From an uncultured Chloroflexia bacterium (GTDB lineage: Bacteria > Chloroflexota > Anaerolineae > Anaerolineales > UBA4823): a DNA stretch of 64,000 bases. The stretch covers positions 466,850 to 530,849 of the forward strand of contig CAWBUW010000002.1 in assembly GCA_963792075.1 (NCBI GenBank), written 5' to 3'. Positions within the stretch are counted from its first letter, which is position 1. Each line of letters opens with the position of its first letter. A model generated the notes under the pieces. It did not search any database and was not told the origin of the DNA. It worked only from the letters and a program-made list of their open reading frames with translations. This document shows positions 32,593-58,733 of the stretch, piece after piece. Made by a program: the position numbers and the translations under genes.

Positions 32593-32624
32593 ACGGGTGC
32601 CGCTGGCTTGCTTGTGGTACAATC

Positions 32625-32633
32625 ACAAACGCT
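32625..32633 (+). promoter_or_regulatory. candidate extended -10 promoter of the NusG-like gene
   Basis: TGGTACAAT, 14 nt upstream of the ATG at 32648. Confidence 0.3.
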
Positions 32634-32647
32634 TATTGAAATAATAT

Positions 32648-33153
32648 ATGGATTCCCACTGGTACGCCCTCCGTTGTAAACCCCGTAAGGAAGAGGTGGT
32701 CTGGAAGCAGGTGAGCGATCAAGGGTTTGAGGTGTTTTATCCCCGTTTACGGGTGAATCCGGTGAACCCTCGCGCCCGAAAGATAAAACCTTATTTTCCG
32801 GGCTACCTTTTTGTTCGCCTGGATTTGGCCGTCCTGGGAACTTCTGCTTTCCAATGGATGCCTCACACAATAGGGCTGGTTTCCTTCGGCGGTGAACCTG
32901 CTGCCGTGCCAGATAACCTGATCTTTGCTGTGCGCAAGCGAGTAGAAGAAATCGCAGAGGTGGGGGGGAAATATTTGATGGGCTAAAATCGGGTGATGCG
33001 GTTTCGATTGATTATGGGCCCTTCAGGGGTTATGAGGCTATCTTCGATGCTCGTGTCCCCGGCAGTGAACGTGTGAAAGTGATGCTGATCTGGCTGGATT
33101 CCCGCCAGATCCCGGTAGAATTGGATGTATCCAGTATCCGCCAAAAGAAGTAG
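32648..33153 (+). pseudogene. NusG/RfaH-like transcription antiterminator paralog, split at a G7 run (possibly a sequencing indel)
   Basis: The NGN domain (WYALRCKPRKEE...) stops at 32984-32986. The KOW domain (LKSGDAVSIDYGPFRGYEAIF...) continues in another frame to TAG 33151-33153. One extra G at 32962-32968 joins them. Confidence 0.8.
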
Positions 33154-33205
33154 AGTTCGGGCGAAGTGGGTAAATGCCTGAAAATATAAGATTGGAGAGC
33201 TGAAA

Positions 33206-34269
33206 ATGAAAAAAGCTTTAATCACAGGTATTACTGGACAGGACGGCTCGTACCTGGCTGAGTTGTTATTGTCCAAAGAGTATGAAGTTCATGGGATGAT
33301 CCGCCGGGCGAGCACCTTCAATACTCGCCGCATTGACCATCTCTACAACGATCCGCATAACAAGGTGAACCTTTATTTGCATTACGGTGACCTGGCCAGC
33401 GGCGGTTCCTTGACCGACATGGTCTATTCGATCCAGCCAGATGAGATTTATAATTTGGCTGCGCAATCTCACGTGCGCGTGAGCTTTGATCTGCCCGATT
33501 ATACGGGAGACATTACCGGCCTGGGCACCATCCGTTTGTTGGAAGCAATACGCAAGAGTGGGATCAAGACCCGTATGTACCAGGCTTCATCCAGCGAGAT
33601 GTTCGGCAGCGCCAGGCCCCCGCAGAGCGAGACGACAGCTTTCGAGCCCCAGAGCCCCTACGCAGCCGCCAAGGTTTATTCCTATTGGGTGACGCGGAAT
33701 TACCGCCAGGGCTATCAGATGTTTGCTTCGAACGGGATTTTATTCAACCACGAGTCCCCCGTCGCGGCGAAACCTTCGTTACCCGGAAAATTACGCGTGC
33801 CCTGGCTGCGATCAAGGCCGGCAAACAGGATTTCCTCTACCTGGGCAACCTGGATTCCAAGCGTGACTGGGGCTACGCACCTGACTATGTGGCAGCCATG
33901 TGGAAGATGATGGAGCAGGATCATGCCGATGATTTTGTCATTGGCACAGGTGAATCGCACTCGATCCGGGAATTCCTGGATGAATCCTTTGGCTACGTGG
34001 ATATGGATTGGCACCAGTATGTGCGCATCGATCCCAAGTACTTCCGCCCAACTGAGGTGGATTATTTGCAGGCAGATCCCGCCAAAGCGCGCCAGAATTT
34101 AGACTGGGAACCGCGCGTTTTCTTCAAAGACCTGGTGCGTATCATGGTGGATGCTGACCTGGAGCTGGAGGGCCTGGAGTCTCCCGGTGAAGGCAAGAAA
34201 CTGTTGGAAGTTCACCATGGCAAATGGCACCGTTGGGACTCACAGGTTGTGAGCATGGAGCGCCCATAA
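33206..34269 (+). pseudogene. gmd: GDP-mannose 4,6-dehydratase, split at a C5 run (possibly a sequencing indel)
   Basis: [12 protein letters not shown]...NHESP in one frame, then [12 protein letters not shown]... in the next. One extra C at 33756-33760 restores it. Confidence 0.85.
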
Positions 34270-34288
34270 AGTGTTCCAGAACCACTGA

Positions 34289-34330
34289 AGGGGTGCACTA
34301 AAAAGTTGTTGGTATGTGTGTGCGCGGGAA
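34289..34330 (+). repeat. truncated left half of a family 2 element
   Basis: GGGGTGCACTAAAAAGTTGTTGGTATGTGTGTGCGCGGG matches the left arm of 8713-8803 and the 1294 hairpin. No right arm is present. Confidence 0.5.
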
Positions 34331-34339
34331 GGTGGATAA

Positions 34340-34459: not shown

Positions 34460-34477
34460 AGGTACCAGGAGGCAGGC

Positions 34478-35554
34478 ATGAACGAGAAGATAAAAACAGA
34501 GCAGCCTGATAACCGCACCATTCAGACGGTAGCCGGGCTTCTGGTGGTGGTGGTCCTTTCCATCATAGCCTGGTGGGTAACGAATTGGGTTTACCAGATC
34601 AAGCTTCCCTGGGGCATCCCAGGGAAAGCCTTGGAATACCCGTTATGGGCGGCACTGATGGGGCTTCTGGGGAACGTGGTGCTGAAATTAACAGGCTGGC
34701 ACGCTTACCTCCGGCCGGGTATGCGCACCGAGTTGTTTTTGAAAACCGGCCTGGTCTTGTTGGGCGCGGGGATTAACCTGGCGGTCCTGGTAAGCTACGG
34801 CTCGCTAGCTGCGCTGCAAGGGTTGATCATGATCACCAGTGTGTTCTTCTTCAGTTGGTGGCTGGGTGGGCGTTTTGGCCTGGATGATAAGCTGCGCGCG
34901 GTGATGTCCACAGCCGTCTCGGTCTGCGGTGTTTCAGCGGCGATTGCTGCGGCCGGTTCGGTGCTGGCGAAAAAAGAGCAGGTGACTTACGTAACCACGC
35001 TGGTCATCCTTACCGCGCTGCCGCTCATGGTATTTGCGCCTCTGGCAGCCGGCGCCATGCAGCTTCCTGAGCCGGTGGCTGGCGCCTGGTTCGGTGGCAA
35101 TATTGACACCACGGCCGCGGTGGTGGGCGCCGGGACGATCTATGGCGAAAAGGCCCAGGAAACCGCAACGATTGTCAAGACCACCCAAAACGCCTTGATC
35201 GGCGTGGTGGCTTTTTTGCTCGCCTTATATTTTGCTCTACATAGCGGCGAAACTGCGGGGAAACGCCCCTCCATAAAGCTGATCTGGGATCGTTTTCCGA
35301 AGTTTGTGCTCGGTTTTGTGCTCGCTTCGATCTTGTTTTCGGTGCACATGATTGACGGTGGCAAGGGTACCGCGATTGAAGCGCTGAAGAACTGGGCTTT
35401 CACCCTGGCTTTTGTCTCGATGGGCCTGGAGATGTCCACCAGTGACCTTAAGAGCATGGGCTGGCGACCGCTGGCAGTATTCTTGATCGTGACCGTCTTC
35501 AATACGCTTCTGGCGTTGGGTGTAGCCTGGGCATTATTTGGTGGGCAGGGATAA
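34478..35554 (+). CDS. YeiH/UPF0324 family membrane protein (putative sulfate exporter family)
   Basis: 358-aa polytopic protein with family-like composition. AGGAGG before the ATG. Confidence 0.65.
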   Translation: MNEKIKTEQPDNRTIQTVAGLLVVVVLSIIAWWVTNWVYQIKLPWGIPGKALEYPLWAALMGLLGNVVLKLTGWHAYLRPGMRTELFLKTGLVLLGAGINLAVLVSYGSLAALQGLIMITSVFFFSWWLGGRFGLDDKLRAVMSTAVSVCGVSAAIAAAGSVLAKKEQVTYVTTLVILTALPLMVFAPLAAGAMQLPEPVAGAWFGGNIDTTAAVVGAGTIYGEKAQETATIVKTTQNALIGVVAFLLALYFALHSGETAGKRPSIKLIWDRFPKFVLGFVLASILFSVHMIDGGKGTAIEALKNWAFTLAFVSMGLEMSTSDLKSMGWRPLAVFLIVTVFNTLLALGVAWALFGGQG

Positions 35555-35597
35555 TCTTAGGACCTGACCGAAAGGGATATTGGGGAGAGGAGTTTAA

Positions 35598-36683
35598 GTG
35601 AGGAATATTTTAGTGACAGGCGGCGCGGGGTTTATCGGCTCGAACTTTGTGCGCTTTATCCAGCAAGCTGAGCCAGACGTACAGGTCGTCAACCTGGATG
35701 TACTGACCTATGCCGGCAGTCTGGAAAACTTGAAGGACTTGCCTGTTCCTGAAAAGCACGTCTTTATTCAGGGCGATATTTGCGACCGCGCCCTGCTGGA
35801 GAGCCTGCTGCGCCAGTATCAGATCGATACCGTGGTGCACTTTGCCGCCGAGACGCATGTAGATCGCTCGATCCTCGGCCCGGGGCAGTTCATCCAAACG
35901 AACATCATTGGGACTTTTACGCTGCTCGAAGCAGTGCGCCAGTACTGGTTGAGCGAAAAGGCGCTCAAGGGCGCTCCGGTACGCTTCCATCATATTTCCA
36001 CCGACGAAGTTTTTGGTTCGCTGGATTCAGACGCGCCGGCCTGGACCGAAGAGACCCCTTACGCACCCAATTCACCTTATGCTGCTTCGAAAGCGGCCAG
36101 TGACCACCTGGTTCGTTCTTATGGGCATACCTACGGGCTGCCCTACTCGATTTCGAACTGTTCTAACAATTATGGCCCTTACCAGTTCCCGGAAAAATTG
36201 ATCCCGCTGATGATTTTAAACGCGTATCACGGAGAACCGCTGCCCATCTATGGGGATGGAGGCCAGATCCGAGATTGGCTGTACGTGGAAGACCACTGCG
36301 AAGCGATCTGGCGGATTCTGAGCAAGGGGCACCCGGGGCAGACCTATAACATCGGCGGTGGAGCTCAGCCTACCAACCTATTGGTTATCGAGCAGTTATG
36401 CAGCCAGATGGATGAGCTCTATCCCGATTCGCCGCATGCGCCCCACCGGTCGTTAATGCGCTTTGTAGCCGATCGTCCTGGCCATGACCGGCGGTATGCG
36501 ATCGATTTTGGGAAAATTCAGCAAGAGTTAGGTTGGCAGCCGCGCCAGTCGTTTGGCAGTGGTCTGCAGAAAACGGTGGCCTGGTACCTGGACCATCCTG
36601 ATTGGGTGGCGAAGGCCCAGCAGCAGGGTGATTACAAGGCTTGGGTGCAGCGCAATTATACGCAGAGAGAATCGGAGAATTGA
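35598..36683 (+). CDS. rfbB: dTDP-glucose 4,6-dehydratase
   Basis: [12 protein letters not shown] and [15 protein letters not shown] motifs. GTG start after GAGGAG. Confidence 0.9.
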
Positions 36684-36687
36684 AGAA

Positions 36688-37992
36688 ATGAAGCAAATAT
36701 GTGTCATCGGTGTTGGCTATGTGGGGCTGGTCACCGCAGCGATTTTTGCAGACCTGGGCAATCGCGTGATTGGGCTGGATATTTCGGCTGAAAAAATTGC
36801 CGGTTTGAAAGCAGGCGTCATGCCGATTTACGAGCCGGGATTGGCCGAAATCGTCAGCCATAACGTACATGCCGGACGCCTATCTTTTACCACTTCTTAC
36901 GATGAAGCTTTGAAAGATGTTGAATTTGTTTTTATCGGCGTCGGCACACCCTCTGGGTCGGACGGCGAGGCAGATTTGCGTTATGTGCGCCAGGTAGCTC
37001 AGTCCATCGCCGAGCACATGATCGCGCCGTTGATCCTCATCGACAAATCCACCGTTCCGGTAGGCACAGGCGAGTGGGTTGGGGATATTGTGCGTGCACA
37101 CCAGCCGCAGCCAATTCCTTTCTCGGTGGTTTCCTGCCCGGAATTCCTGCGCGAAGGCTCGGCAATCAGTGACAGCCTTAACCCCCACCGCACCGTGATT
37201 GGTTCCTCAGACCGGGCAGCCGCGGAACGTGTTGCCCAACTGCATATGCCGCTGCGCGCACCTATCATGATCACCGATCTGCGTACGGCCGAGATGATCA
37301 AATACGCCTCGAACGCTTTCCTGGCTACCAAGATATCTTTCATTAACGAAATCGCCAATATCTGTGAAGCCTTGGGCGCAGATGTTAAAGAGGTGGCTGC
37401 GGGCATGGGCTATGATAAGCGCATTGGCCCACAATTTCTTGACGCTGGCCTGGGCTATGGCGGCTCTTGTTTCCCCAAGGATGTCAAGGCCCTGGCCTAC
37501 ATGGCCGCTGAGAGCGGCCGTCACCCGCAACTGCTGCACGCTGTGATGGCGATCAATGACGACCGCCGGCCCATGGTGGTTCATCGCCTGAATGAAATGT
37601 TGTCCGGGTTGGAAGGCAAGACAGTTGGCTTGCTGGGCCTGGCTTTCAAACCGAACACGGATGATATGCGCGATGCTCCAGCCATCGACATTGCCCGGGC
37701 GCTGATTTCACAGGGGGCTGTGGTCAAGGCTTATGATCCGGTAGCTATGCCCACTGCGGCTCCGATCATGCCCGAGGTGTTGATGCAGGAGGATCCGTAT
37801 ACACTGGCTGAAGGCTGTGATGCACTTGTTGTGGTTACCGAGTGGAATGAGTTCAAACAGCTTGACCTGGAACGGCTACGCGATTTGATGAACCAGCCCG
37901 TTTTGCTGGATGGGCGGAACATTTATGATCCCAAGCAAATGGCAGCTCTCAAATTTACCTATCGAGGGATTGGACGCGGGCATGTGCTTTAG
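36688..37992 (+). CDS. ugd: UDP-glucose 6-dehydrogenase
   Basis: [13 protein letters not shown] and GGSCFPKD motifs. The start is taken at MKQICV. Confidence 0.9.
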
Positions 37993-38034
37993 ACCCTCCG
38001 GATGTAACCAGTCTAATTTCGGGAGGAGTCTTCG

Positions 38035-39027
38035 TTGACCAAAGCGTTAATTTTAGGTATCAATGGTCAGGATGGCTCCTACCTGTCCGAACTGCTGCTG
38101 GCTAAAGGCTACACCATCGTGGGCTGGCTTCCTACAGGGGTTCCCACCCCTTTAGATAATATTGCGCATTTACTAGGTCCAGGCGAGACGGCCCAGGTGC
38201 AGCTTGTCCAGGGACATTTGAACGACCAGGCTGGCTTATATACACTGATCGAGGAGGTTCAACCAGATGAAGTGTATAACCTGGCGGCGCCTTCTTTTCC
38301 TGCAGGTTCGTGGGAGCAGGCCGCGATGGTCGGCGATATCGCCGGGCTCGGCGTAGCGCGCCTGCTTGACGCCGTCCGCCAGGCGCGCCCTCAAGCTCGC
38401 TTTTACCAGGCCTCTACCAGCGAAATGTTTGGCGAACCGGTGGAAACCCCGCAGTCGGAGCGCACCCCTTTCCATCCGCGCAATCCTTACGGCGTAGCCA
38501 AGCTCTACGCTCATTGGATGGTGGTTAACGCTCGTATTAAGTATGGGCTGTATGCCGTGAGTGGCATTCTATATAACCATGAAAGCCCGCGCCGTGGGCT
38601 TGAATTTGTCACCCGCAAGATCACACATACTGCTGCAAAGATAAAGCTGGGGTTGGCAGACCGGCTGGCGCTGGGCAACCTGGAAGCCCGGCGGGATTGG
38701 GGGTATGCCGGCGATTATGTCCAGGCCATCTGGGCGATGCTGCATCAGGAAGAGCCAGAAGACCTGGTGATTGGCACCGGGCAGGCGCGGACAGTAGGTG
38801 AGTTTTGTACACGGGCTTTTGGATGCCTGGGATTGGACGCAAAGGACTATGTTGTACAAGATCCCAATCTCTATCGCCCATCCGAGGGCCTGGACCTGGT
38901 GGCTGATCCCCGCCGGGCCAAAGAGAAATTGGGCTGGGTGTCAGGTACAAGCTTTGACCAAATGGTGCATAGGATGGTTGAACATGATATGAAACTACTA
39001 AGCTCTGAACTGGAAGGAAAAAATTAA
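38035..39027 (+). CDS. gmd: GDP-mannose 4,6-dehydratase (second copy)
   Basis: ILGINGQDGSYLSELLL...YNHESPRRG. TTG start after GGGAGG. Confidence 0.85.
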   Translation: MTKALILGINGQDGSYLSELLLAKGYTIVGWLPTGVPTPLDNIAHLLGPGETAQVQLVQGHLNDQAGLYTLIEEVQPDEVYNLAAPSFPAGSWEQAAMVGDIAGLGVARLLDAVRQARPQARFYQASTSEMFGEPVETPQSERTPFHPRNPYGVAKLYAHWMVVNARIKYGLYAVSGILYNHESPRRGLEFVTRKITHTAAKIKLGLADRLALGNLEARRDWGYAGDYVQAIWAMLHQEEPEDLVIGTGQARTVGEFCTRAFGCLGLDAKDYVVQDPNLYRPSEGLDLVADPRRAKEKLGWVSGTSFDQMVHRMVEHDMKLLSSELEGKN

Positions 39028-39028
39028 C

Positions 39029-41151
<2,123 letters not shown>

Positions 41152-41155
41152 TCAG

Positions 41156-42127
41156 ATGAAATATCTGGTCACTGGCGCGGCAGGTTTTATTGCGAGTCGG
41201 GTGTCGGACCTGCTCCTCGAAGCCGGGCACACAATCGTAGGGGTGGATAACCTCAATGATGCCTATGATGTGCGCATGAAGGAGTATCGCCTGAAGCGAT
41301 TGCTCCCAAAGTCGGGATTCACTTTTCACAAGCTGGATATCGCAACCCGCGATCAGGTGGAACCTCTGGATGCGGAAGGCCCGTTCGATGCAGTTATCAA
41401 CCTGGCAGCACGGGCTGGAGTCCGGCAGGCGGTGGAGAACCCCTGGGTGTACCTGGATACCAATACGATGGGTACGCTGAACATGCTCGAGCTTTGCCGT
41501 CGCTTAAATGTCCCCAAGTTCCTCCTCGCTTCTACCTCCAGCATTTACGGCGCGGATGCCCCGATCCCCACGCCTGAAACCGCCTCCAGCGACCGGCCCC
41601 TGCAGCCTTACGCGGCCAGTAAGAAGGGCGCCGAAGTGCTGGCTTATACTTACCATTACTTGTACAAAGTAGACGTCAGCGTGGTGCGTTATTTCACGGT
41701 GTATGGCCCAGCAGGACGCCCGGATATGGTCATGTTCCGCCTGGCGAAATGGATCACTGAAGGTGAAACCGTACGCATGAACGGGGATGGGACTCAATCA
41801 CGTGGCTTCACCTACCTGGACGATATTGCCCGCGGCACGATCCTGGCGCTCAAACCGGTGGGTTACGAGATCCTCAACCTGGGTGGGCATGAAGCGATTA
41901 CGATGAATGAATTGATCCAAATGTTGGAAGAGATGATTGGGCGTAAGGCGCACCTGGAGTATTATCCATTCCATCCTGCGGACATGCAGGCGAACCTGGC
42001 AGACGTCAGCAAAGCACGCCAGATGTTGGGTTGGAGCCCAGAGTTTACTCTGCAGCGCGGTGTGCGCAACCTGGTGGACTGGTATATGCAGGAACGCAGT
42101 TGGGCCAGCCAGATTGCTACTCCCTGA
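41156..42127 (+). CDS. NAD-dependent epimerase (UDP-glucuronate 4-epimerase-like)
   Basis: VTGAAGFIASRV...NLNDAYDVRMKEYRL and YAASKKGAE. Confidence 0.75.
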   Translation: MKYLVTGAAGFIASRVSDLLLEAGHTIVGVDNLNDAYDVRMKEYRLKRLLPKSGFTFHKLDIATRDQVEPLDAEGPFDAVINLAARAGVRQAVENPWVYLDTNTMGTLNMLELCRRLNVPKFLLASTSSIYGADAPIPTPETASSDRPLQPYAASKKGAEVLAYTYHYLYKVDVSVVRYFTVYGPAGRPDMVMFRLAKWITEGETVRMNGDGTQSRGFTYLDDIARGTILALKPVGYEILNLGGHEAITMNELIQMLEEMIGRKAHLEYYPFHPADMQANLADVSKARQMLGWSPEFTLQRGVRNLVDWYMQERSWASQIATP

Positions 42128-42140
42128 TCAAGGAGCCAAA

Positions 42141-44366
42141 GTGAAGCAGCTTTCGCAAAATATGCAATCCGGGCTGCTCCGGGTTGAAGAAGTTCCAGCA
42201 CCGGATGTGCAGCCTGGGCGTGTCCTGGTGCAGACAGCTTACTCACTAATCAGTGCAGGCACAGAACGTTCGCTGGTCGAAACCGGGCGTAAGAGCCTGG
42301 TGGGCAAGGCGCTCTCACGGCCGGACCAGGTGCGCAAAGTGCTGCGTTCAGCGCAGCAGTTGGGGCTGCAGGCCACTTTCAGTTTAGTCAAATCCCGCCT
42401 GGACGCGCGCATGCCGTTGGGCTATAGCTCGGCGGGCGTGGTCCTTGCCGTGGGCGCTGGAATTGAGGGCCTGAAGGCCGGCGACTGGGTCGCCTGCGGC
42501 GGGGCTTCTGCCGGGCATGCGGAAGTGATGAGCGTACCGCGTAACCTGTGCGTGCCTGTGCCTGAGGGAGTGACTCTGCGCCAGGCAGCTTTTGCCACCG
42601 TGGGTGCGATAGCCCTGCAGGGGATCCGCCTGGCGGATGTGCGTATCGGTGAGGTCGTGCTGGTGATCGGCCTGGGATTACTGGGTAACCTGACTGTGCA
42701 GATGCTAAAAGCTTCCGGCTGCAGCGTGGCCGGTTATGACCCCAATTCGCAGCGCTGCGAACTGGCCTTGAAGTTGGGAGCAGATTACGCCTTTTCCGAC
42801 GAGAAGTTGTTGGAAAGCACGCTGGCGCATCTCTCTATGTCGCATGGCGCCGACGCCGTGATCATTACCGCAGGCACCTCCAGCAGCCGCCCGGTGGAGA
42901 TGGCCGGGGAGCTGTGCCGCGACAAGGGCAAGGTGATTGTGGTGGGAGCGGTCGGGCTGACCCTGCCGCGGGGTCCCTATTACAACAAGGAAATTTCGTT
43001 TGCCATCTCTCGCTCCTATGGTCCGGGCCGGTATGACCTCACCTATGAAGAGAAGGGGAGCGACTATCCATATGGTTACGTGCGCTGGACGGAAGGGCGC
43101 AATATGCACGCCTTCCTGGGGCTGCTCAAAGAGCGCAAAGTGGACGTCGACAGCCTGGTGACGCATACTTTTCCCTTAGACCAGGCCATTGAAGCCTATG
43201 ACCTGATCAGCGGTAAACGCCAACCAGCCTCCCCTGAAACACCTGGGCTGTCTTTCATGGGGGTGCTCTTTGAGTATCCTCAATTAGCCGACTTGAACCG
43301 GCGGGTTGAGATGCAGCCAGCCAGCGGTCGGTCCGCCTTGGCTTCACCGGACACGCTGAAGATCGGTGTGATTGGCGCCGGGAATTTCGCTCGCAGCATG
43401 CTGCTGCCTCACTTGAAGGGACATCCGCAAATAACCCTGGCCGGGGTGGCTACGCGGACGCCATTGGAGAGCCGGGATGTGGCTGACCGCTTCGGTTTTG
43501 GGTATGCTGCCACCGATCCAGACCAGGTTTTGCAGGACGCCGCCATCCAGGCGGTAATCATTGCCACGCGGCACGACTCGCATGCCAGCCTGGCTGTACG
43601 CGCCCTGCAAGCGGGCAAAGCCGTACACGTGGAAAAGCCGCTGGCGATGACGGAGGTTGAGCTGGAGGCGGTCGTTGAGGTTTATCGTCAACTGGCCGCG
43701 GGTGCCGGTGCATCCCCCTTCTTGATGGTTGGCTTCAACCGCCGCTTTGCGCCATTGGTGCGCCAGGCTGCAGATTTCTTTGCCCTGCGCAGCGAACCGT
43801 TGGCGATGTCTTTCCGCATCAATGCGGGTTATCTGCCCCTGGATCACTGGACGCAGGACCTGGAAGTTGGCGGCGGCCGGATCGTGGGCGAGGTCTGCCA
43901 CTTCCTGGATCTCTTCCAGTTCCTGGCAGGTGCGCAGCTGACCAGTGTGTATGCCCGTGCCTTGCCCAACCAGGGCCGTTATCGAGATGATAACTTGGCG
44001 ATTACCGCTGCACTGGCAGATGGATCTGTCGGTAATGTACTGTACGTTGCCAATGGCGATAAAGCGCAGGGCAAAGAATACCTGGAAATTTTCTGTGAGG
44101 GCTCTGCAGCCGTGTTGGATGATTACCAGAGCCTGGCGCTTTACCGCGGCCGGAAACAGGTCTCTCGCCAGGGGGCGCGGGATAAAGGACATCACGGTGA
44201 GATGCTCGCCTGGGTAGAGGCGCTCCGGAGCGGTCAATCCGAACCGGTGCCTTTTACGCACGCGGTCACCGCAACGCGAGCAACATTTGCTGTGCAGCAA
44301 TCTTTGTCCAGCGGCCAGCCTGTCTCGCTTCCTGTTCTGGATACCCTGAAAGGATCATCTGAATGA
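42141..44366 (+). CDS. bi-domain oxidoreductase (zinc-ADH-like plus Gfo/Idh/MocA-like)
   Basis: GTG start after AAGGAG. MDR-type N-terminal half and a GAGNFA Rossmann C-terminal half. Confidence 0.75.
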   Translation: MKQLSQNMQSGLLRVEEVPAPDVQPGRVLVQTAYSLISAGTERSLVETGRKSLVGKALSRPDQVRKVLRSAQQLGLQATFSLVKSRLDARMPLGYSSAGVVLAVGAGIEGLKAGDWVACGGASAGHAEVMSVPRNLCVPVPEGVTLRQAAFATVGAIALQGIRLADVRIGEVVLVIGLGLLGNLTVQMLKASGCSVAGYDPNSQRCELALKLGADYAFSDEKLLESTLAHLSMSHGADAVIITAGTSSSRPVEMAGELCRDKGKVIVVGAVGLTLPRGPYYNKEISFAISRSYGPGRYDLTYEEKGSDYPYGYVRWTEGRNMHAFLGLLKERKVDVDSLVTHTFPLDQAIEAYDLISGKRQPASPETPGLSFMGVLFEYPQLADLNRRVEMQPASGRSALASPDTLKIGVIGAGNFARSMLLPHLKGHPQITLAGVATRTPLESRDVADRFGFGYAATDPDQVLQDAAIQAVIIATRHDSHASLAVRALQAGKAVHVEKPLAMTEVELEAVVEVYRQLAAGAGASPFLMVGFNRRFAPLVRQAADFFALRSEPLAMSFRINAGYLPLDHWTQDLEVGGGRIVGEVCHFLDLFQFLAGAQLTSVYARALPNQGRYRDDNLAITAALADGSVGNVLYVANGDKAQGKEYLEIFCEGSAAVLDDYQSLALYRGRKQVSRQGARDKGHHGEMLAWVEALRSGQSEPVPFTHAVTATRATFAVQQSLSSGQPVSLPVLDTLKGSSE

Positions 44367-45640
44367 AAGTCTGTATCTTAGGTCTGGGTTATATCGGCTT
44401 ACCCACGGCAGCCATGTTCGCCACGCACGGTGTGCAGGTGCTGGGGGTGGACGTGAACGACCAGGTGGTCGCGACGCTGCAGAGCGGCAAGATCCATATC
44501 CACGAACCGGGCTTGCTGGACCTGGTGCAGGATGCTCTCACCACTGGGAATCTGCAGGTCAGCCACCAGCCAGAACTGGCTGACGCTTTTTTGATCGCAG
44601 TACCGACCCCATTTTATGAAGACAAGACTGCCGATATGCGCGCGGTGACCTCAGCAACTGAAGCCATTGTGCCTTACCTGCGCCCGGGGAACCTGGTAGT
44701 ACTCGAGTCCACTTCACCGCCCCGCACGACGGTAGATTTGGTGCTGCCTATCCTGGAGAAGTCCGGGCTGAAGGCAGGGCGGGATTTTTACCTGGCTTAT
44801 TCCCCCGAACGTGTGCTGCCGGGTAAAATCCTGGATGAGCTGGTGCAAAACGCACGCGTGATCGGTGGCCTGACTCCGGCCTGCGCCCGGCTTGGACGGG
44901 AATTGTACGCCCACTTTGTGCGCGGTGAAATTGTCGAAACCGATGCCACCACCGCCGAGATGGTCAAATTGATGGAAAATACTTACCGGGATGTGAATAT
45001 TGCGATTGCCAACGAGTTTTCCCGCCTGGCAGATCGTTTTGGGGTGGATGTATGGGATGCGATCAGCCTGGCTAACCGCCACCCGCGCGTGAAAATCCTC
45101 CGTCCAGGCCCGGGTGTGGGAGGTCACTGCATCAGCGTGGATCCCTGGTTCTTCGTACAGGCCGCCCCTGACCTGACCCCGTTGATCCACACGGCCCGGC
45201 TGGTCAACGATGCACAACCGCATTTTGTGGTCCAATTGGTACAGCGTTTGATGGGTGATCTGACCGGACGGCGCATTGCAGCCCTTGGATTAGCGTTCAA
45301 ACCGGATGTAGATGATCTGCGTGAGAGTCCCACGGTGGAGATATGCCAATTACTCTCCCAGGGAGGCGCACAGGTGAAGGCATTTGAGCCTTTCCGCCCG
45401 GATATGGGTTTTGAAGGTTTTCAAACCATGCTGACTCTGGATGCGGCGGTGAAGGATGCTGAATTGATCCTGCTTCTGGTTGGCCATGCGCAGTTCCGCG
45501 CCTTAGATCCGGTCCACCTGGCGCAGCTCACCTCGGCGCGCCAGGTTCTGGACACGGTCAATGGTTTGCCTCTGGCGGATTGGAAAGCAGCCGGCTTTGT
45601 GCTCTCCAGGCTGGGAGCCGCAAAGCCGGAGCCCAGGTAG
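44363..45640 (+). CDS. wecC: UDP-N-acetyl-D-mannosamine dehydrogenase
   Basis: GLGYIGLPTAA and GGHCISVDPWF motifs. Confidence 0.88.
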   Translation: MKVCILGLGYIGLPTAAMFATHGVQVLGVDVNDQVVATLQSGKIHIHEPGLLDLVQDALTTGNLQVSHQPELADAFLIAVPTPFYEDKTADMRAVTSATEAIVPYLRPGNLVVLESTSPPRTTVDLVLPILEKSGLKAGRDFYLAYSPERVLPGKILDELVQNARVIGGLTPACARLGRELYAHFVRGEIVETDATTAEMVKLMENTYRDVNIAIANEFSRLADRFGVDVWDAISLANRHPRVKILRPGPGVGGHCISVDPWFFVQAAPDLTPLIHTARLVNDAQPHFVVQLVQRLMGDLTGRRIAALGLAFKPDVDDLRESPTVEICQLLSQGGAQVKAFEPFRPDMGFEGFQTMLTLDAAVKDAELILLLVGHAQFRALDPVHLAQLTSARQVLDTVNGLPLADWKAAGFVLSRLGAAKPEPR

Positions 45641-45667
45641 TTCAGCGCTGCTGGTGTAGTTATTGAT

Positions 45668-46870
45668 ATGAGCCAGATGCGCCCTTCTTCGCCTGAGCAG
45701 CAAAAAGCGTACAAGGCGCTGTGTTGCATTCTAACAGACCGCTTTTCTCAAGTGCCATGGACGGATTTGTCAAAGGCGGATTGGATGAATTTGCAGCAGA
45801 TGGCGTTGCAGCACCGCGTGGGGCCACTGGTGTACTGGAAATTGAAGGGACAACTGCTTGATCAGTGGGGCGCGCCTGAAAAGTGGATCGAGCCGCTAAC
45901 CGATAGTTATTACACCACCTTTGCGTATAATACGCTCTTATTCCGTTCTCTCTGGCTGATTTTGGCTACATTGTACCTGGAGAAAATCCCGGTGGTACTG
46001 CTAAAAGGTGCCAGCCTGGCAACCCAGGTTTACGAGAATATTGGCCTGCGTCCGATGGGAGATCTGGACTTGCTTTTTGAACGCCAGGATATTCCCACTG
46101 CTGCCCGCGTGCTGCAGCAGCAAGGCCTAACGCCGGTGGTGATGGAAGATGAGGCCACCCCGGATAATCTGAATATTTACGCCCAGCCGTTCACTGGAAT
46201 GAATAGCCCCGTTGCGGTGGAAATGCATTGGGACCTGTTTGGCCGGGAGACGCACCGCTATGAACCAGACCTCGCCTGGTTTATAGCACAAACCGAGCCT
46301 TTCCAGCCGCCGCAGAGCGAGCCAGTGCAGATGGGTGATGTACGACTGCCCTCGGATTCACTGAATTTCATCTATCTGTCTGCGCACGCAGTTTTAAAAC
46401 ATCGGGGTTCCGGAGAGCATTTGCTTTGGTACGTAGACCTGTATCGCCTGGCCAGCCGAGGGAACCTGGATTGGGAATGGATGGCGGAAGCTGCCCGGCG
46501 CATGCACTGGGGCGCCGGCCTGGTAGCTTGTTTGTTAGTGCTGTCTCAGGATTTTGGCCTGCCTCTACCCAAAGGGTACCTGGATCAGATTCTCGCTTCG
46601 GTAGAAGCGCGGGATCTCGAATATGTGCAGCAGCGGGGTGAAATGAGGAATAACTGGCAGGGTTTCCTCACTACGCTCCACCCGTTAAGCTGGCGAGACC
46701 GGGGACGATTTCTCTGGGGCGCTGCTCTTCCACAGCCGGCCTACATGCGGTGGCGCTACCGCCCCTCACCAGAGTGGGCCTGGCCGTTGATGTACCCCTA
46801 CCGCTGGGTCCGAGGCTTCCTTAAGCTGTTTTTCAACGCTCCAGATACTCCGCCTCCCGCGGCGAGATAG
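45668..46870 (+). CDS. uncharacterised nucleotidyltransferase-family protein (NTP_transf_5-like)
   Basis: LLKGASL...GDLDLLF motif; 400 aa. Confidence 0.6.
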   Translation: MSQMRPSSPEQQKAYKALCCILTDRFSQVPWTDLSKADWMNLQQMALQHRVGPLVYWKLKGQLLDQWGAPEKWIEPLTDSYYTTFAYNTLLFRSLWLILATLYLEKIPVVLLKGASLATQVYENIGLRPMGDLDLLFERQDIPTAARVLQQQGLTPVVMEDEATPDNLNIYAQPFTGMNSPVAVEMHWDLFGRETHRYEPDLAWFIAQTEPFQPPQSEPVQMGDVRLPSDSLNFIYLSAHAVLKHRGSGEHLLWYVDLYRLASRGNLDWEWMAEAARRMHWGAGLVACLLVLSQDFGLPLPKGYLDQILASVEARDLEYVQQRGEMRNNWQGFLTTLHPLSWRDRGRFLWGAALPQPAYMRWRYRPSPEWAWPLMYPYRWVRGFLKLFFNAPDTPPPAAR

Positions 46871-46872
46871 CC

Positions 46873-48159
46873 ATGAGCATATTTCAATCGCGTAAGATAC
46901 TGCAACCGTTCCAGTTCCTGGCTCAACACGAGCTCTGGCATGCAGTGCTGCTGGTAGGCCTGAGCATCCTCCAGCCCGTCTTTTTGCCCTGGGCGGCTCT
47001 AGGGTTGGGGATATTATCTCTGATTCGCTGGCTGGGGAAGGGTCGTTGGAGTGTACGTACTCCAGTGGATGGTCCCATCATCGTACTGGCTCTGATGGCT
47101 TTGATCTCGTTATGGATCACTCCCCTGCCAGGGGTGACGCTGCCTGAGGTATACCGGTTACTGACCGGACTGGCTCTGTTTTATGTCATCGTAAATTGGT
47201 CAACGAAGCCCGCGCACGTTGCCTGGCTGACGGTTGGCACCGCCGGCCTGGCGCCGGGTTTGGCCTTCATGGCTATATTCAGCGTGAATTGGCCAGCCGG
47301 GAAATTGCCCTTGATCCCACGTTCGCTCTATGAGCCTTTTGCCCAACGGATTGCGGATGCAGTTCACCCAAATGTGCTGGCGGGAAACCTGGCGGTAGTC
47401 ATGCCGGTCTGCCTGGCATTATTCCTTTTTCGCTGGGGAGAGGGTCCGATGAAACACTGGCAGCGCATCCTGCTGCGCCTGCTTCTAGGCGGGATGCTGG
47501 CTTTTTGCGCTGCGATTTTTCTTTAACTCAGTCGCGCGGTTCCTGGATGGCTTTTGGATTGGCTGCAGCCGTGATCATCATGCTTCGTTTTCGTTGGGGT
47601 TGGCTGCTCACGCTGATCACCGGGGCGGGTGCGCTGGGCGTGGCTTATTATTTTCTGGACGTCCCGCGTTTGCTCCGCTGGCTGCGTTCCAGCTTCCTGG
47701 TGGGCGAACTGGCAGGCCGGATCGAACTGTGGGCGCGAGGAATCTTCATGCTGGAAGATTTCTTTTTTACCGGGATCGGCATGGGCACTTATGCACAGAC
47801 GGCGAATGCGCTCTACCCATTGCGGTCAGTCGCGCCACCGCACGCGCACAACTTGTTCTTGCAGGTTGGCCTGGATTTGGGCATGCCCGGATTGTTGGCC
47901 TGGCTGGCCATTTTCCTGGTCGTGACCTGGGCTGCCTGGCGCCTGACCCGCGGTCAAGAGTTCGAGTACTGTCTGGATGCGCGCGTTAGGTGCGGGTGTG
48001 TTGGGCAGCCAACTGGTGATGGCTGTGCATGGTCTGTTTGATGCCGTCACCTGGGGGATGATTCGGCCGGCGCCAATAACCTGGGGGCTGTGGGGGGTGT
48101 GCCTGGGTGCTTATTTGTTGGTCCATCGGATACAGCCTGCGGACGCGGAGGCGGCTTGA
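46873..48159 (+). pseudogene. O-antigen ligase/Wzy-like membrane protein read in three frame segments (possibly sequencing indels)
   Basis: The first segment ends at 47526. The Wzy_C-like core (LTQSRGSW...HAHNLFLQVGLDLG) is in another frame. The tail, from about 47950, returns to the first frame. Confidence 0.7.
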
Positions 48160-49205
48160 TCGCGCGGTTCCGGCGGTTGGGCCGGGAGCGGTGGCTGCAG
48201 CTCGTGCTTGGCAGCGCCATCAGTGTGCTGGCTCTATACCTGGCTTTGCGTAAGATTTCGCTCCAAGATGTGATGCAGGTATTTTCCCGTGCAAACTGGG
48301 TTTACCTGGCGTTCGCTTTGATCGCCTGGGCGATCCATAATTTAGCCAAAGCAGCGCGCTGGGGGCTGCTGTTGGCGCCGGTCCAAACTGAAAACAGGCC
48401 AGGAGTGCCGCTGCGGGATTTGTTCTTCTCGCTGATGGCAGGCCAGATGCTCAATCTGGTTTACCCCGGCCGGGTGGGAGACATCAGCCGTATCCTGGTC
48501 ATTGGCGGCCGCGGGCCAGGCAAAGCAGCGACTGCGGGGACTCTGGTTTTGGAAAAAGCAGTGGACACGATCTGCTATGCCATCTTAATGGCGATTTTGT
48601 CCTTGTTGATTGCGATACCGGGTTGGTTGGTTGGCGCACTGCTGTGGCTGGTTGGGATGCTGGCCGGTTTCTGGCTGTTTCTTTTTTTGTTTGGCCGGGA
48701 GCAGCCCTGGCCTGAGTCTCTCGTTACTTGGCTGGATCGCAGGCAAATGAGCTGGCTGCCGGCCAGGCGCATCGAAGGTTTGCTGCTTTCGTTCCGGGCG
48801 GGCGTCTCTGGGTTTGCAGGACTACGCGCCTGGCAACCCTTTGCCCGGCTGTCTTTGTGGTCCGCGACTGCCTGGGGAATGTCGCTCTTGATCAACTGGC
48901 TGGTTGCTATTTCTGTGGGCTTAAAGTTTGACACTCTCTCCTCAACGCTTGCTGCTCAGATCCTGGTTTTAATTGGATTGCAGGCCGGGATCGCGATTCC
49001 ATCGTTGCCGGGTAGGGTGGGGGTGTTCGAATATATCTGTGTGCTGACCTTGGGGGTATTTGGGATTGAGCCCTCGGCTGCCTTCGGCTACGGTGTGCTG
49101 CTGCACGTCGTGGTAATGCTGCCAACCTTATTGATGGGTTGGGCGGCGTTGGTGATCCTCGGGTTAGACCGCAAGCTGGTAATAGATGAACACGCAGAAG
49201 TTTGA
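48156..49205 (+). CDS. UPF0104/LPG-synthase-TM family flippase-like membrane protein
   Basis: Polytopic. The TTG start overlapping the upstream TGA is proposed; the start is uncertain (ORF track 48090). Confidence 0.65.
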   Translation: MIARFRRLGRERWLQLVLGSAISVLALYLALRKISLQDVMQVFSRANWVYLAFALIAWAIHNLAKAARWGLLLAPVQTENRPGVPLRDLFFSLMAGQMLNLVYPGRVGDISRILVIGGRGPGKAATAGTLVLEKAVDTICYAILMAILSLLIAIPGWLVGALLWLVGMLAGFWLFLFLFGREQPWPESLVTWLDRRQMSWLPARRIEGLLLSFRAGVSGFAGLRAWQPFARLSLWSATAWGMSLLINWLVAISVGLKFDTLSSTLAAQILVLIGLQAGIAIPSLPGRVGVFEYICVLTLGVFGIEPSAAFGYGVLLHVVVMLPTLLMGWAALVILGLDRKLVIDEHAEV

Positions 49206-49953
49206 AAGGGTAGATATCTTAGGCGTCCAGATCGCCTGTACCGATCGGGAAGGGTTGTTTCGCACAGCCTCCGACTGGGCCAACCAGAACGAAAAGCATA
49301 CAATTTGTTATGCCAACGCGCATACCCTAAATATTGCAGCTAAAAACGGGCCCCTGTGCAACGTGATGAACCAGGCAGACCTGGTTTATACAGACGGAAT
49401 CAGTGTGGTTTGGGCCGCCAAATTCCTTTATAATATCCATCTCGAGAAGATGACTGCCCGAGCCTGGTTCTACGACTTTGCTGCCCAGGCTGCACAAAGT
49501 GGCTCGAAAATTTTTCTTCTGGGCGGTATGGAAGGGGTCGCCCGGCGCGCGGCGGAAAATCTGGTCGCAGCCCAACCAGGGCTGCAGGTCGTAGGCTTCC
49601 AGACAGGCGTCTTCTCAACCGGCCAGTCCGCTGGCGAGGAACTTACCCTTGTAGAGCAGATTAACCGGGCCGGGCCAGATATCTTGTTTGTCGGCCTCGG
49701 GACGCCGCTGCAGGAGGATTGGATCTTCTGTAACCGGCAGGCTCTGAAGGTCCCGCTGTGCTGGGCGGTAGGTGCGTTGTTCGATTATTTAGCCGGGAGC
49801 GAGAAACCAGTCCCGGCGTGGATGGACCGGCTTGGTCTGGAATGGTTATGGCGTTTGGGGTTGGACCCGCGTGGGAAATGGGAGCGCTATTTATTGGGTA
49901 ACCCGCGCTTTATTTGGCGGGTGTGGCGTCAAAAACTAGCTCAGGATAAATAA
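49186..49953 (+). CDS. WecB/TagA/CpsF family glycosyltransferase (GT26)
   Basis: VGLGTPLQEDWI motif; 255 aa. Confidence 0.85.
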   Translation: MNTQKFERVDILGVQIACTDREGLFRTASDWANQNEKHTICYANAHTLNIAAKNGPLCNVMNQADLVYTDGISVVWAAKFLYNIHLEKMTARAWFYDFAAQAAQSGSKIFLLGGMEGVARRAAENLVAAQPGLQVVGFQTGVFSTGQSAGEELTLVEQINRAGPDILFVGLGTPLQEDWIFCNRQALKVPLCWAVGALFDYLAGSEKPVPAWMDRLGLEWLWRLGLDPRGKWERYLLGNPRFIWRVWRQKLAQDK

Positions 49954-49955
49954 AA

Positions 49956-50474
49956 ATGCCTTCAATCTTACTCGTGTGTACCGCAAATATCTGCCGTTCC
50001 CCGATGGCAGAAGCCATCCTTAAAGATCAGCTTTCTCGACGCCCGGATGCAGCGCAGTGGCAGGTGGCATCCGCCGGCACCTGGGCGCTGGATGGCCGCG
50101 GGGCTGCGTTGGGCACCCGAGACGCTCTCCGTGACCTGGGATTGACCGCGGAAGGACACGTCGCCCGCACGGTCACGCTGGATTTACTGCAAACGTTTGA
50201 CCTCATCCTGACCATGGAACGCGGGCAGCAAGAGGCATTACAGGTTGAATTTCCCCAGGTAGCTTCACGGATCTCCCTGCTGGCCGAGATGGTGGGCGCT
50301 CGTTTCGATATCCAGGATCCAATTGCCGGCACGCAGGCGGATTTCCGCGCGACGGCGCAGGAGCTGCTGCAGCTCCTGACCCAGGCTATGCACACCATCA
50401 CCCAGACTGCCACCCGGAATGCGGCGCTGCGCCCGGGGATGAGCGGGGATGATGAGGGTAGGAATCTCCTGTAA
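49956..50474 (+). CDS. low-molecular-weight protein-tyrosine phosphatase
   Basis: CTANICRS (CX5R-S) P-loop at the N-terminus. Confidence 0.88.
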   Translation: MPSILLVCTANICRSPMAEAILKDQLSRRPDAAQWQVASAGTWALDGRGAALGTRDALRDLGLTAEGHVARTVTLDLLQTFDLILTMERGQQEALQVEFPQVASRISLLAEMVGARFDIQDPIAGTQADFRATAQELLQLLTQAMHTITQTATRNAALRPGMSGDDEGRNLL

Positions 50475-50489
50475 GGATGTGGATTTAAA

Positions 50490-52466
50490 ATGAACACTTT
50501 TAAGAACCTGTGGGAACGGCGCGATGCGAAGATGCTGTTGTTGGTGCTGCTGGTAGCGCTGCTGTATGGGCTCTTGTACGTGTTCCTCGTCCCGCCCTGG
50601 CAGCATTACGATGAACCCTCGCATTTTGAAGTGGCCTGGCTGACAGCCCGCCGCGGGACAGTTCCGCAACTGGGAGATGAGACGGACCTGGAAATACGGC
50701 GGGCGATTGCCATTTCGATGCGCGCCCATGAATTTTTCCGCGATGCGGGTTTCGAGCCGCCTCTGGAAGAGAATGGCAATATCTGGCTGGGGCAGACCCA
50801 ATTTGGCAACCTGCCGCTGTATTATTACCTTGCGGCTATTCCAGTCCGATTGCTGGAAAACCAGGGTATTGATGCGATGCTCTATGGGGCGCGCCTGCTC
50901 TCATTGTTCTTCCTGCTGCTCAGCGTGCTTGCCTGTTGGGGTATCGTTGTAGAATTCACTCCCGCAGGCCATCGAATGCGCTTCCTGCTGCCATTGGGGC
51001 TGGCTTTGCTGCCGGGTTACGTGGATGTGATGACCGCGGCCAACAATGATACCCTTGCGGCTTGCCTGGCAGCCCTGGCATTGTGGGCAGCTCTGCGTTT
51101 GATCCGGCGAGGGTTTTCAATTGTCCCCTTTCTGGCTGTTTGCTTGCTGGCAGTCCTGATCTACTTCTCGAAAGAAACAGCTTATCCGGTGTACTTGCTT
51201 CTATTCGTGGCCATGCCCTTAATGCTGGCGCGTGGCCGGTTTGCGGCGCTGCGGCCCTGGATCTGGGGTGGTGTATTTACTGGCGTTGTGATTTTCCTGG
51301 CCTGGGCGATGATGCCCGGAGACGCAGCAGCCTGGTACCGGGTCACAACGCAGGCACTCCCGACGCGCACGGATGTTCAGCCGGCGGTAGTGGGGAATTA
51401 CGTCTTTCAGTTCGACCCTCAGGCCCCAAGTTCGCCGGATTGGTTCAATAACACTGCGGTTTTCCAACCCATGCCGCTGGCCATCCCAGACCGGAATGAG
51501 GTTTATACGCTGGGGGTATGGGCGTGGACAATGTCATCATCGCCCAATGCTGTTCAAGAGACAGCCAGGTTAACCCTCGGTTTTGGCTTCAACCGCTTTT
51601 CCAATACTTTTACTCTGACTCCCGAGCCAACCTTCCTGGTCATTACCGGCACCATGACTCCCGAGCAGTTTATGCCCTTTCGACTGTTGCTTGGACCAGG
51701 GTTTCATACCAGCTCCGGGAGTAGGGACCAGCTAGTTTTCATGGACGGGGTGGTTCTGGCGAAAGGGGAGTACCCCAGCGTTGAACCCCCCGAATATGAG
51801 GATGCTCAAGGATCGAGCGGATCCTGGGGCGGGCGGTCTTTCACCAACCTGGTGCGGAATGGCTCTGCTGAGCTGGGTGGGCTGCGTTTCCGCCCCCTGG
51901 TGGACCACCTTGTGGCGCGCTTCTTACCCGACCGGACCCAACCTTCTCTGCTGCTGACTTCGTTCCTGGACTGGCCGGGCTCACAGTTGTACTATTCAGG
52001 CGCAGCCGAGTGGCTGCTGACGACCTTTTGGGGCATGTTTGGCTGGGCGCATGTCCCGCTGCTCGGCTCACCACCGCGCTGGCTGTTTGCCGGGTATACC
52101 TTCATAGCTGTCCTGGCAACGGCCCTCTGGACCGTGGGAGCGCTATTTGGCCGGAACCAAAGCCTGCATACATTGCGTAGTGAGGCGCTTTTCCTGGTTT
52201 TAGCGCTGGTTCTGCCCTGGATGAGCACGCTGCTGCGCGCACCGCTCTATCTCGGCCTGGAGAATTTGTACCTGCCGGTGGCGCGCTACGCGCTGGCCGC
52301 GGCGATTCCAACCGTGTTCGTGTTGAACCTGGGGTTGCTCCAAATCTATGGCGCCTTGGATCGTAAATTCTCGGCGCGAGGGTGGATTACCGCAGGCGCA
52401 TTTATCGGCGGCTGGTTGCTATTCGCGCTATATGCCATTCTCAGCATTCGGATGTTCTATGCCTGA
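50490..52466 (+). CDS. large polytopic membrane protein (DUF2142-like, GT-C-like)
   Basis: 658 aa. HYDEPSHF lies after the first TM helix. Many TM helices plus a soluble insert. Confidence 0.6.
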   Translation: MNTFKNLWERRDAKMLLLVLLVALLYGLLYVFLVPPWQHYDEPSHFEVAWLTARRGTVPQLGDETDLEIRRAIAISMRAHEFFRDAGFEPPLEENGNIWLGQTQFGNLPLYYYLAAIPVRLLENQGIDAMLYGARLLSLFFLLLSVLACWGIVVEFTPAGHRMRFLLPLGLALLPGYVDVMTAANNDTLAACLAALALWAALRLIRRGFSIVPFLAVCLLAVLIYFSKETAYPVYLLLFVAMPLMLARGRFAALRPWIWGGVFTGVVIFLAWAMMPGDAAAWYRVTTQALPTRTDVQPAVVGNYVFQFDPQAPSSPDWFNNTAVFQPMPLAIPDRNEVYTLGVWAWTMSSSPNAVQETARLTLGFGFNRFSNTFTLTPEPTFLVITGTMTPEQFMPFRLLLGPGFHTSSGSRDQLVFMDGVVLAKGEYPSVEPPEYEDAQGSSGSWGGRSFTNLVRNGSAELGGLRFRPLVDHLVARFLPDRTQPSLLLTSFLDWPGSQLYYSGAAEWLLTTFWGMFGWAHVPLLGSPPRWLFAGYTFIAVLATALWTVGALFGRNQSLHTLRSEALFLVLALVLPWMSTLLRAPLYLGLENLYLPVARYALAAAIPTVFVLNLGLLQIYGALDRKFSARGWITAGAFIGGWLLFALYAILSIRMFYA

Positions 52467-55254: not shown

Positions 55255-55305
55255 TAAATCGGGTCAAGGCCGCTGGTCTTTCGCGACGAAAATCTGCTTT
55301 CGGGG

Positions 55306-55965
55306 TTGTTAGAGGTGAATGAAGTGTTGGATCAAAGTCAATTGAGCCAGGGGATTGACGCCGGAGATACCGGATCTAGTACAACGCAGGCAAACAGCGA
55401 TGAAGCGGTGCTGGCTCTTGCGGTCGAAGGTGACCAGGAAGCTTTTGGCATCCTTTATGAACGTTACGTAGGACGGATCTACAGTTATATTTATTATCGC
55501 ACCGGGAACCATCATGATGCTGAGGATTTGACCGCTCGTGTTTTTATCCGGGCGATCCGTAGTATCGTCAAGTACCAGGACCGCGGCCTGCCCATTTCCG
55601 CCTGGCTGTACCGGATTGCGCATAACCTGGTCGCGAACTGGCACCGTGATCGCAGCCGCCGCCCGGAGATTGTCTTGGATGAGCGCCTGGCATTTTACCC
55701 CAGCGCAGAGCATCCGGAAATAACGATGTTGAGAAATGAGGAGCAAGACCGCTTAATGAGGATCATCCGCAAACAGCCCCAGGATCGCCAACAGCTTTTG
55801 ATCTTGAAATTCGTGGACCATTTATCCAATGCGGAGATCGGGCAGATCATGGGACGTACCGAAGGCGCGGTTAAGAGCCTGTACCACCGTACTTTATTGT
55901 CTCTGCGTGACGAATTAGGCGAGTTCGCTGTCAATACGATGGAAGGAACATCAGGAGAAACGTAA
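55306..55965 (+). CDS. ECF-type RNA polymerase sigma factor
   Basis: Region 2 (DAEDLTARVFIRA) and region 4 (LSNAEIGQIMGRTEGAVKSLYHR). The start codon is uncertain. Confidence 0.85.
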   Translation: MLEVNEVLDQSQLSQGIDAGDTGSSTTQANSDEAVLALAVEGDQEAFGILYERYVGRIYSYIYYRTGNHHDAEDLTARVFIRAIRSIVKYQDRGLPISAWLYRIAHNLVANWHRDRSRRPEIVLDERLAFYPSAEHPEITMLRNEEQDRLMRIIRKQPQDRQQLLILKFVDHLSNAEIGQIMGRTEGAVKSLYHRTLLSLRDELGEFAVNTMEGTSGET

Positions 55966-58647: not shown

Positions 58648-58653
58648 AATTTT

Positions 58654-58662: not shown

Positions 58663-58667
58663 GAGGT

Positions 58668-58710: not shown

Positions 58711-58733
58711 AAAATATTATCCGAGGGCATCTT

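Follow-up and report, generated by a model that had tools for sequence, protein, structure and literature searches.

A split RfaH-like NusG paralog at the head of a glycan locus in an Anaerolineales genome and an ops-like element accompanying its relatives

Results and Discussion

Arrangement of the locus

In the window, by which we mean the whole 64-kb stretch of DNA analysed, a gene for a NusG-like protein, interrupted by a change of reading frame, is preceded by gap, pgk, tpiA and a gene for an M50-like membrane protein and is followed by a long series of glycan genes. The features of this region, including three further genes with displaced frames, are given below in window coordinates.

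32615..32623, plus strand: extended -10 promoter-like TGGTACAAT, 25 nt upstream of the paralog ATG (read from sequence)
32648..32986, plus strand: NGN-domain ORF as written, 112 aa (Pfam NusG NGN, E=2.1e-16)
32962..32968, plus strand: G7 homopolymer (read from sequence)
32968..33153, plus strand: KOW-domain coding segment in another frame, EIFDGLKSGDAV...IRQKK* (sequence; tblastn)
33154..33205, plus strand: 52-nt spacer before gmd, free of the ops-like element
33206..34269, plus strand: gmd, GDP-mannose 4,6-dehydratase, interrupted where one base is missing at C5 (33756-33760) (Pfam halves)
34478..55965, plus strand: co-oriented, tightly packed glycan operon (Pfam; intergenic gaps; synteny of the low-molecular-weight tyrosine phosphatase, LMWPc, and the sigma factor in relatives)
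46873..48041, plus strand: Wzy/O-antigen-ligase-like gene with a one-base deletion between 47445 and 47523 (three-frame reading)
58734..59850, minus strand: DegT-type aminotransferase with a one-base insertion near 59702-59715, C4/GG on the plus strand (Pfam)

The ATG at 32648 opens an ORF on the plus strand that ends with TAA at 32984-32986 and comprises residues 1-107 of the family protein followed by the out-of-frame tail KYLMG, and the gene as written would yield an NGN domain with a foreign extension of five residues. The remaining part lies in the frame offset by +2 (...GGGEIFDGLKSGDAVSIDYGPFRGYEAIFDARVPGSERVKVMLIWLDSRQIPVELDVSSIRQKK*, also written as EIFDGLKSGDAVSIDYGPFRGYEAIFDAR...IRQKK) and runs to the stop at 33151-33153; it has no start codon of its own, and no ORF of at least 30 aa is listed in this frame. 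If the homopolymer is read as G8, the codons GTG GGG GGG GAA give V-G-G-E and the frame is restored, resulting in a protein of 168 aa whose junction EVGGEIFDGLK corresponds to the family consensus (A/V)GGE(V/I/L)FDGLK and whose residues 106-168 are found at 100% identity in the second frame (tblastn). The preliminary description had reported an NGN ORF at 32648-32986, a G7 tract at 32962-32968, a KOW part reaching 33153 and an intact product of about 168 aa upon addition of one G, and both the coordinates and the translation agree with ours. From its sequence we infer TGGTACAAT to be the promoter of the paralog, and it probably serves the operon as well; motifs of the TGnTAnAAT type are similarly placed upstream of the ortholog in many relatives. 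A consensus promoter scan missed this element because a -35 match is absent.

Comparison was made with 80 loci from GTDB representative genomes, a set in which the source species is absent. The ortholog is intact and encoded in a single frame in all 80 of them (54-71% identity), and most share the order gap-pgk-tpiA-M50-like-paralog succeeded by a variable glycan cassette, a layout identical to that of the window. This confirms for related Anaerolineales genomes that the gene lies outside the secE-nusG-rplK context and heads a glycan locus, both of which had been proposed from the window only. In the relatives the cassette often begins with gmd and often ends with genes for a low-molecular-weight tyrosine phosphatase and a sigma-70-family factor. 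The extent of the downstream glycan region, originally estimated as roughly 31 kb, needs to be divided: glycan genes are present throughout about 33.2-63.6 kb, yet co-orientation with the paralog is limited to 33206-55965 (about 22.8 kb, intergenic gaps of at most 208 nt), a segment beginning 52 nt after it, while the glycan genes at 56788-63586 occupy the opposite strand in convergent orientation. The segment 34478..55965, presumed to be the target of the antiterminator, encodes SDR epimerases/dehydratases, two UDP-sugar dehydrogenases, WecB, the Wzy-like protein, WecG, a low-molecular-weight tyrosine phosphatase, DUF2142 and others. Its last gene (55306-55965) specifies a sigma-70-family factor with regions 2 and 4, ECF-like, which closes the co-oriented operon; since an ortholog of 65-72% identity follows the cassette in many relatives, it constitutes a conserved limit to the variable region on its right side.

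A specialised paralog of NusG

The repaired protein carries the Pfam NusG NGN domain at residues 4-94 (E=2.1e-16) and a C-terminal KOW domain, and with one G added it has the composition and length (NGN plus KOW, about 160-180 aa) by which specialised NusG paralogs (NusG-SP) are recognised. Each of the curated NCBIfam models for NusG-type proteins matches it end to end (the RfaH model aligns with residues 5-164, the NusG model with residues 14-164), and all of them score under their cutoffs, RfaH being the best:

RfaH, TIGR01955: 82.7 bits, cutoff 144.5
RfaH, NF006534: 69.2 bits, cutoff 124
UpxY, NF033644: 53.2 bits, cutoff 100
NusG equivalog, TIGR00922: 38.6 bits, cutoff 135.7
LoaP, NF033641: 29.3 bits, cutoff 125

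Solved structures are approximately equally close (NusG chain 2lq8, 47.7 bits; E. coli RfaH, 41.5 bits), and the alignments with both PDB proteins extend through the KOW domain. More than 3,577 homologs were detected, the best having 80% identity. None of the top 120 is interrupted; their lengths fall between 168 and 208 aa, for most within 168-175 aa, and those of them that are named belong to Anaerolineales. AF2 models the NGN domain with pLDDT mostly of 70-90, while the C-terminal domain is built of low-confidence strands (pLDDT about 40-55). By the curated thresholds the protein is not RfaH, UpxY or LoaP; its sequence assigns it to an uncharacterised NusG-SP clade of Chloroflexota, nearest to RfaH by profile score. 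Identity and role at the level of the family are well supported, with a probability that we put at about 0.9.

That the gene might instead be the housekeeping nusG of the organism was named in the preliminary description as what would overturn the specialised assignment, and the window does contain no other nusG. Yet the equivalog score of 38.6 bits is far from 135.7, and in dozens of genomes the surroundings are glycolysis genes and a glycan cassette instead of secE-nusG-rplK, whereas the housekeeping gene resides with ribosomal and RNA polymerase genes except in reduced genomes (PMC7593976). A housekeeping function has, in our estimation, next to no probability, and the assignment to specialised paralogs stands.

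An ops-like element in relatives and metagenomes

The leaders of the locus had been suggested as a place to look for a conserved recruitment element. Such an element exists in the relatives, and no copy of it occurs in the 64-kb window. In about 34 of the 80 loci (~40%) the non-coding DNA after the paralog contains, 40-270 nt past the stop codon, the motif aTGTCGGAAGGGCGGAGCG(C/T)Gg with sharp bounds and unconserved flanks; its 21-mer consensus is TGTCGGAAGGGCGGAGCGYG, and its core is GCG-G-AGC. The motif is strand-specific: at three or fewer mismatches, 35 matches fall on the paralog strand versus 1 on the other strand over the 80 relatives. Scores of the position weight matrix are bimodal, about 34 loci having at least 15 and most of these more than 30, with the others below 13, i.e. 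in the range of the reverse-strand background. The loci and contigs concerned are as follows.

Element-bearing loci, 40-270 nt after the stop (first part): L006, L008, L009, L011, L014, L023, L024, L029, L030, L033, L036
Element-bearing loci (rest): L039-L041, L043, L047, L050, L057, L059, L060, L069-L072, L074, L080
Metagenome contigs with the element: L081-L200

A non-template hairpin is common to E. coli ops (GCGGTAGC) and Bacteroides opsX (YGCGNAGCR) (PMC11685472), and the core GCG-G-AGC fits the GCG-N-AGC scheme of this hairpin. The exact 21-mer is present in at least 120 metagenome contigs. Among the matches listed, 81 copies had enough upstream sequence to be scored; 30 of these follow the paralog (median distance 101 nt) and 51 are unlinked to it, the unlinked ones lying mostly in non-coding DNA directly 5′ of glycan or envelope genes. 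Genes after the unlinked copies encode NTP_transf_5, an ABC exporter, hexapeptide acetyltransferases, Bac_transf, GT2, LytR-CpsA-Psr proteins and, in one case, a NusG-like protein. This distribution resembles that of a regulon controlled in trans, as with RfaH and ops, in which binding and pausing would be the expectation from sequence. Since 51 of the 81 copies precede other glycan or envelope genes, the factor appears to be regulon-wide and RfaH-like instead of strictly locus-specific. The earlier proposal of a locus-specific antiterminator is thereby retained in one half, a specialised paralog heading a glycan locus, and loses its restriction to that locus; the designation of dedicated antiterminator is supported for the family because of the conserved locus layout and the element in relatives and metagenomes.

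The NusG-like case is found on metagenome contig Ga0233423_10047953 (L091), where the ORF of a second, divergent NusG-NGN gene starts 74 nt after the element; the C-terminal part of its product is unlike a KOW domain. It suggests that further paralogs or truncated forms may be under the same control.

In the window, the spacer between the paralog and gmd includes GGGCGAAGTG at 33161-33170, which weakly resembles the element core, and many intact relatives with a short spacer at this place are also devoid of the element. An Rfam scan of the window and of five motif-bearing loci gave no family at the gathering threshold, JUMPstart included. A de novo k-mer search for an alternative element in 48 motif-less loci and the window returned only clade-specific promoter-like strings, and the relaxed core GCGNAGC gave no signal, as its matches near the paralog of motif-less loci were 4 on the plus and 4 on the minus strand. 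Presence of the motif did not covary with particular residues of the protein, the largest difference in frequency between motif-bearing and motif-less orthologs being 0.33.

Further single-base frameshifts and the origin of the split

Three other genes of the locus are displaced in frame by a single base. In gmd, the first gene after the paralog, the reading NHESP|RRGETF requires C6 in place of C5; its two parts match the Pfam profile at positions 1-188 and 186-332, and paired HSPs in two frames were obtained from 51 relatives with about 80% identity on both sides of the shift. In the Wzy-like gene the region of the deletion has T5 runs at 47502-47506 and 47516-47520, Wzy_C is recognised only in the second ORF, and the homolog from one relative (L009) aligns in two frames. 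In the degT gene the N-terminal 47 residues (MDWKVPLADL...EFAARHG) are in another frame and the Pfam match begins at profile position 46. Together with the paralog this makes four indels, of which three are one-base deletions in runs that would truly be 6-8 bases long, and the frame past each of the shifts is open and conserved. In the paralog the KOW part retains 22 of 24 near-invariant C-terminal positions, and the ratio of KOW to NGN conservation (0.91) ranks third of 80, at the low end. All four frameshifts are in the glycan half (32.6-59.9 kb) and none was found in about 32 kb of housekeeping genes, the numbers of homopolymer runs of at least 5 being 131 in the housekeeping half versus 87 in the glycan half; under uniform error such clustering has p ~0.04-0.08.

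These four indels are a warning as to the assembly quality of this stretch, and the split gene is best regarded as a probable consensus error or recent pseudogene. Related assemblies illustrate the first of these possibilities. Among the loci from "MFD" MAGs, which have contigs of Mb scale and belong to the same clade, 6 of 24 (L012, L024, L025, L027, L032 and L057) are affected, with 12 frameshifts altogether in gap, pgk, tpiA and the genes beside them, versus 0 of 56 non-MFD loci. As these genes are essential, the frameshifts must be artefacts, which indicates indel errors of assembly in this type of data; judging by the scale and names of the contigs, the MFD MAGs would be long-read assemblies. 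According to a published survey, nusG has 1-nt frameshifts in 11 "complete" genomes as well, and in 9 cases the same species offers an intact nusG (PMC7593976). For the gene studied here, no sequence of the same species was found in the protein, genome or metagenome collections searched; exact look-ups of the 112-aa ORF and of the adjacent M50-like protein gave no record, and a scan of metagenomes with the flanks of the G-tract, allowing tract lengths of 5-10, produced zero matches. We consider an erroneous consensus at G7 to have somewhat better than an even chance.

The clustering in the glycan half would fit real decay of one locus and, equally, a lower effective coverage of a strain-variable locus, which for glycan loci is plausible. 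If the frameshift is real and recent, the glycan locus would have been inactivated, slipped-strand events having made pseudogenes of gmd and of the genes for the antiterminator, DegT and the Wzy-like polymerase/ligase, a state reminiscent of Yersinia pestis, whose O-antigen cluster carries several frameshifts. Confinement of four indels to one functional unit, the slightly lower than expected conservation of the KOW part and the missing ops-like element speak for such inactivation; nevertheless, past the shifts the sequences are free of nonsense mutations and deletions and have not lost their conservation, some 20 other genes of the locus are intact, and the element is missing from many intact relatives as well. 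Lesions confined to indels are, moreover, characteristic of consensus errors, and such errors occur often in the long-contig MAGs of this clade. Genuine inactivation is on these grounds a possible though tentative explanation, and an under-called base remains the one that we prefer.

The G7 tract as a switch or recoding site

Glycan loci are classical targets of phase variation, and the tract had been considered as a potential on/off switch for the whole locus, provided that its length is real and variable. At the level of sequence a slip of -1 on the heptamer G GGG GGG gives exactly the conserved VGGEIFDG, so that either slipped-strand alternation between G7 and G8 might be imagined, or -1 ribosomal frameshifting or transcriptional slippage by which the G7 allele would still give some full-length protein. 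The tract is not conserved, however: the run at this site, which encodes the conserved (A/V)GGE motif, comprises 2-6 G in all 80 relatives (mode 3), and its length in the window results from a GTG valine codon followed by two GGG glycine codons. Nor is there a sign of selection for long tracts, as G/C runs of at least 7 are depleted in the window (4 observed versus 16.9 +/- 4.3 expected from a first-order Markov model). Statistically the G7 run is unremarkable, and seven G is short for a contingency tract. Programmed -1 frameshifting finds its heptamer here but neither a stimulatory structure after the tract (downstream fold z = -0.05) nor a counterpart in the relatives, where the gene occupies a single frame. 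A dedicated switch also leaves the similar indels in three unrelated nearby genes unexplained. The idea of a switch is not supported by these comparisons, and we regard a contingency or recoding site at G7 as very improbable.

Only a small chance is likewise given to the more general supposition that the G7 allele is both real and functional. In one version, slippage or -1 recoding would toggle the master antiterminator together with the envelope-glycan regulon. In the other, the 112-aa NGN-only product would act as a recruitment-independent anti-pausing factor constitutively bound to RNA polymerase; the isolated NGN domain of RfaH has ops-independent activity, and a product of this kind would account for the absence of the ops-like element at the window locus.

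Proposed mechanism and comparison with known systems

Taken at the level of the family, the paralog is best viewed as a cis-encoded, RfaH-like NusG-SP of Anaerolineales. By homology to RfaH and UpxY, its NGN domain would bind elongating RNA polymerase in the operon leader and render it resistant to pausing and termination, while the KOW domain may provide coupling or autoinhibitory functions; their combined action would ensure full-length transcription of the co-oriented glycan operon of about 23 kb starting 52 nt downstream. In many relatives recruitment most likely proceeds via the ops-like non-template DNA element TGTCGGAAGGGCGGAGCGYG. As for the split, it is most likely a one-base under-call of G8 in the consensus and the real gene is probably intact; if real, the split would be a very recent slip.

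RfaH of Proteobacteria offers the closest parallel. It, too, joins an NGN to a KOW domain in about 165 aa and is associated with polysaccharide operons of great length, and its curated model (TIGR01955) scores best, with end-to-end alignment. In the relatives, a short strand-specific leader element resembles ops, its core GGCGGAGCG(C/T)G being equal to E. coli ops GGCGGTAGCGTG minus one T, and in metagenomes it is found at glycan loci away from the paralog too, much as a regulon controlled in trans would have it. The differences are that the paralog scores far below both RfaH cutoffs, that its host belongs to Chloroflexota and that the Anaerolineales element has about 21 nt versus 12 nt of ops. 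With respect to the alpha-helical autoinhibited KOW of RfaH, the C-terminal domain is modelled here as strands at low pLDDT.

With UpxY of Bacteroides capsule operons the paralog shares its position as the first gene of the glycan operon served, and the Anaerolineales element has the GCG-N-AGC core in common with the opsX hairpin YGCGNAGCR (PMC11685472). However, its UpxY score is about half of the cutoff, the next gene is gmd and not a UpxZ-like one, a single copy is present in each fetched ±10-kb locus in contrast to at least 8 paralogs per Bacteroides genome, and the element of the relatives is located after the paralog gene, not before it. LoaP, described from Firmicutes and others, is similarly a cis-encoded NusG-SP for a long biosynthetic operon; the paralog is remote from it by score (29.3 bits), and while a nascent RNA hairpin was proposed for LoaP recruitment (PMC11685472), the conserved element of Anaerolineales has unconserved flanks. 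The likeness to phase-variable genes with homopolymers consists in a mononucleotide tract that lies inside the coding sequence for a surface-glycan regulator and sets the frame by a single repeat unit; with 7 G, however, the tract is short, it is confined to this lineage, such tracts show no enrichment, and unrelated neighbours have similar indels.

Anaerolineales, abundant and largely uncultured, appear to possess an uncharacterised RfaH/UpxY-like system, whose paralog occupies a fixed chromosomal site at the head of a hypervariable glycan cassette. The most useful by-product of the analysis is the ops-like element of the relatives, which has the GCG-N-AGC core common to E. coli and Bacteroides and marks unlinked glycan operons as well. 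If confirmed, it would extend ops-type recruitment by non-template DNA to a distant phylum and supply an easily recognised sequence tag by which the envelope-glycan regulons of Chloroflexota MAGs could be located.

Other features of the locus

Between gmd and the sugar-nucleotide genes (34270-35554) there is a DUF698/YeiH-type membrane protein, an odd passenger for a glycan locus; its gene comes after a gap of 208 nt, the widest between genes of the operon, and is preceded by a hydrophobic ORF of 50 aa (34306-34458). A candidate frameshift near 53784-53879, in the gene at 53812-55254, was dismissed, the match in the second frame being too weak (E=0.25). On the minus strand, a 612-aa ORF (61748-63586) has an N-terminal Bac_transf domain followed by transmembrane segments and CoA_binding_3, a domain order reverse to that of usual WbaP. 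A fifth indel initially supposed in this ORF was rejected, since the Bac_transf protein of metagenome locus L137 has a similar extension past the domain, its own ORF ending at the contig end before the CoA_binding_3 region; the order of Bac_transf and CoA_binding_3 looks like a natural architecture and not like an indel artefact.
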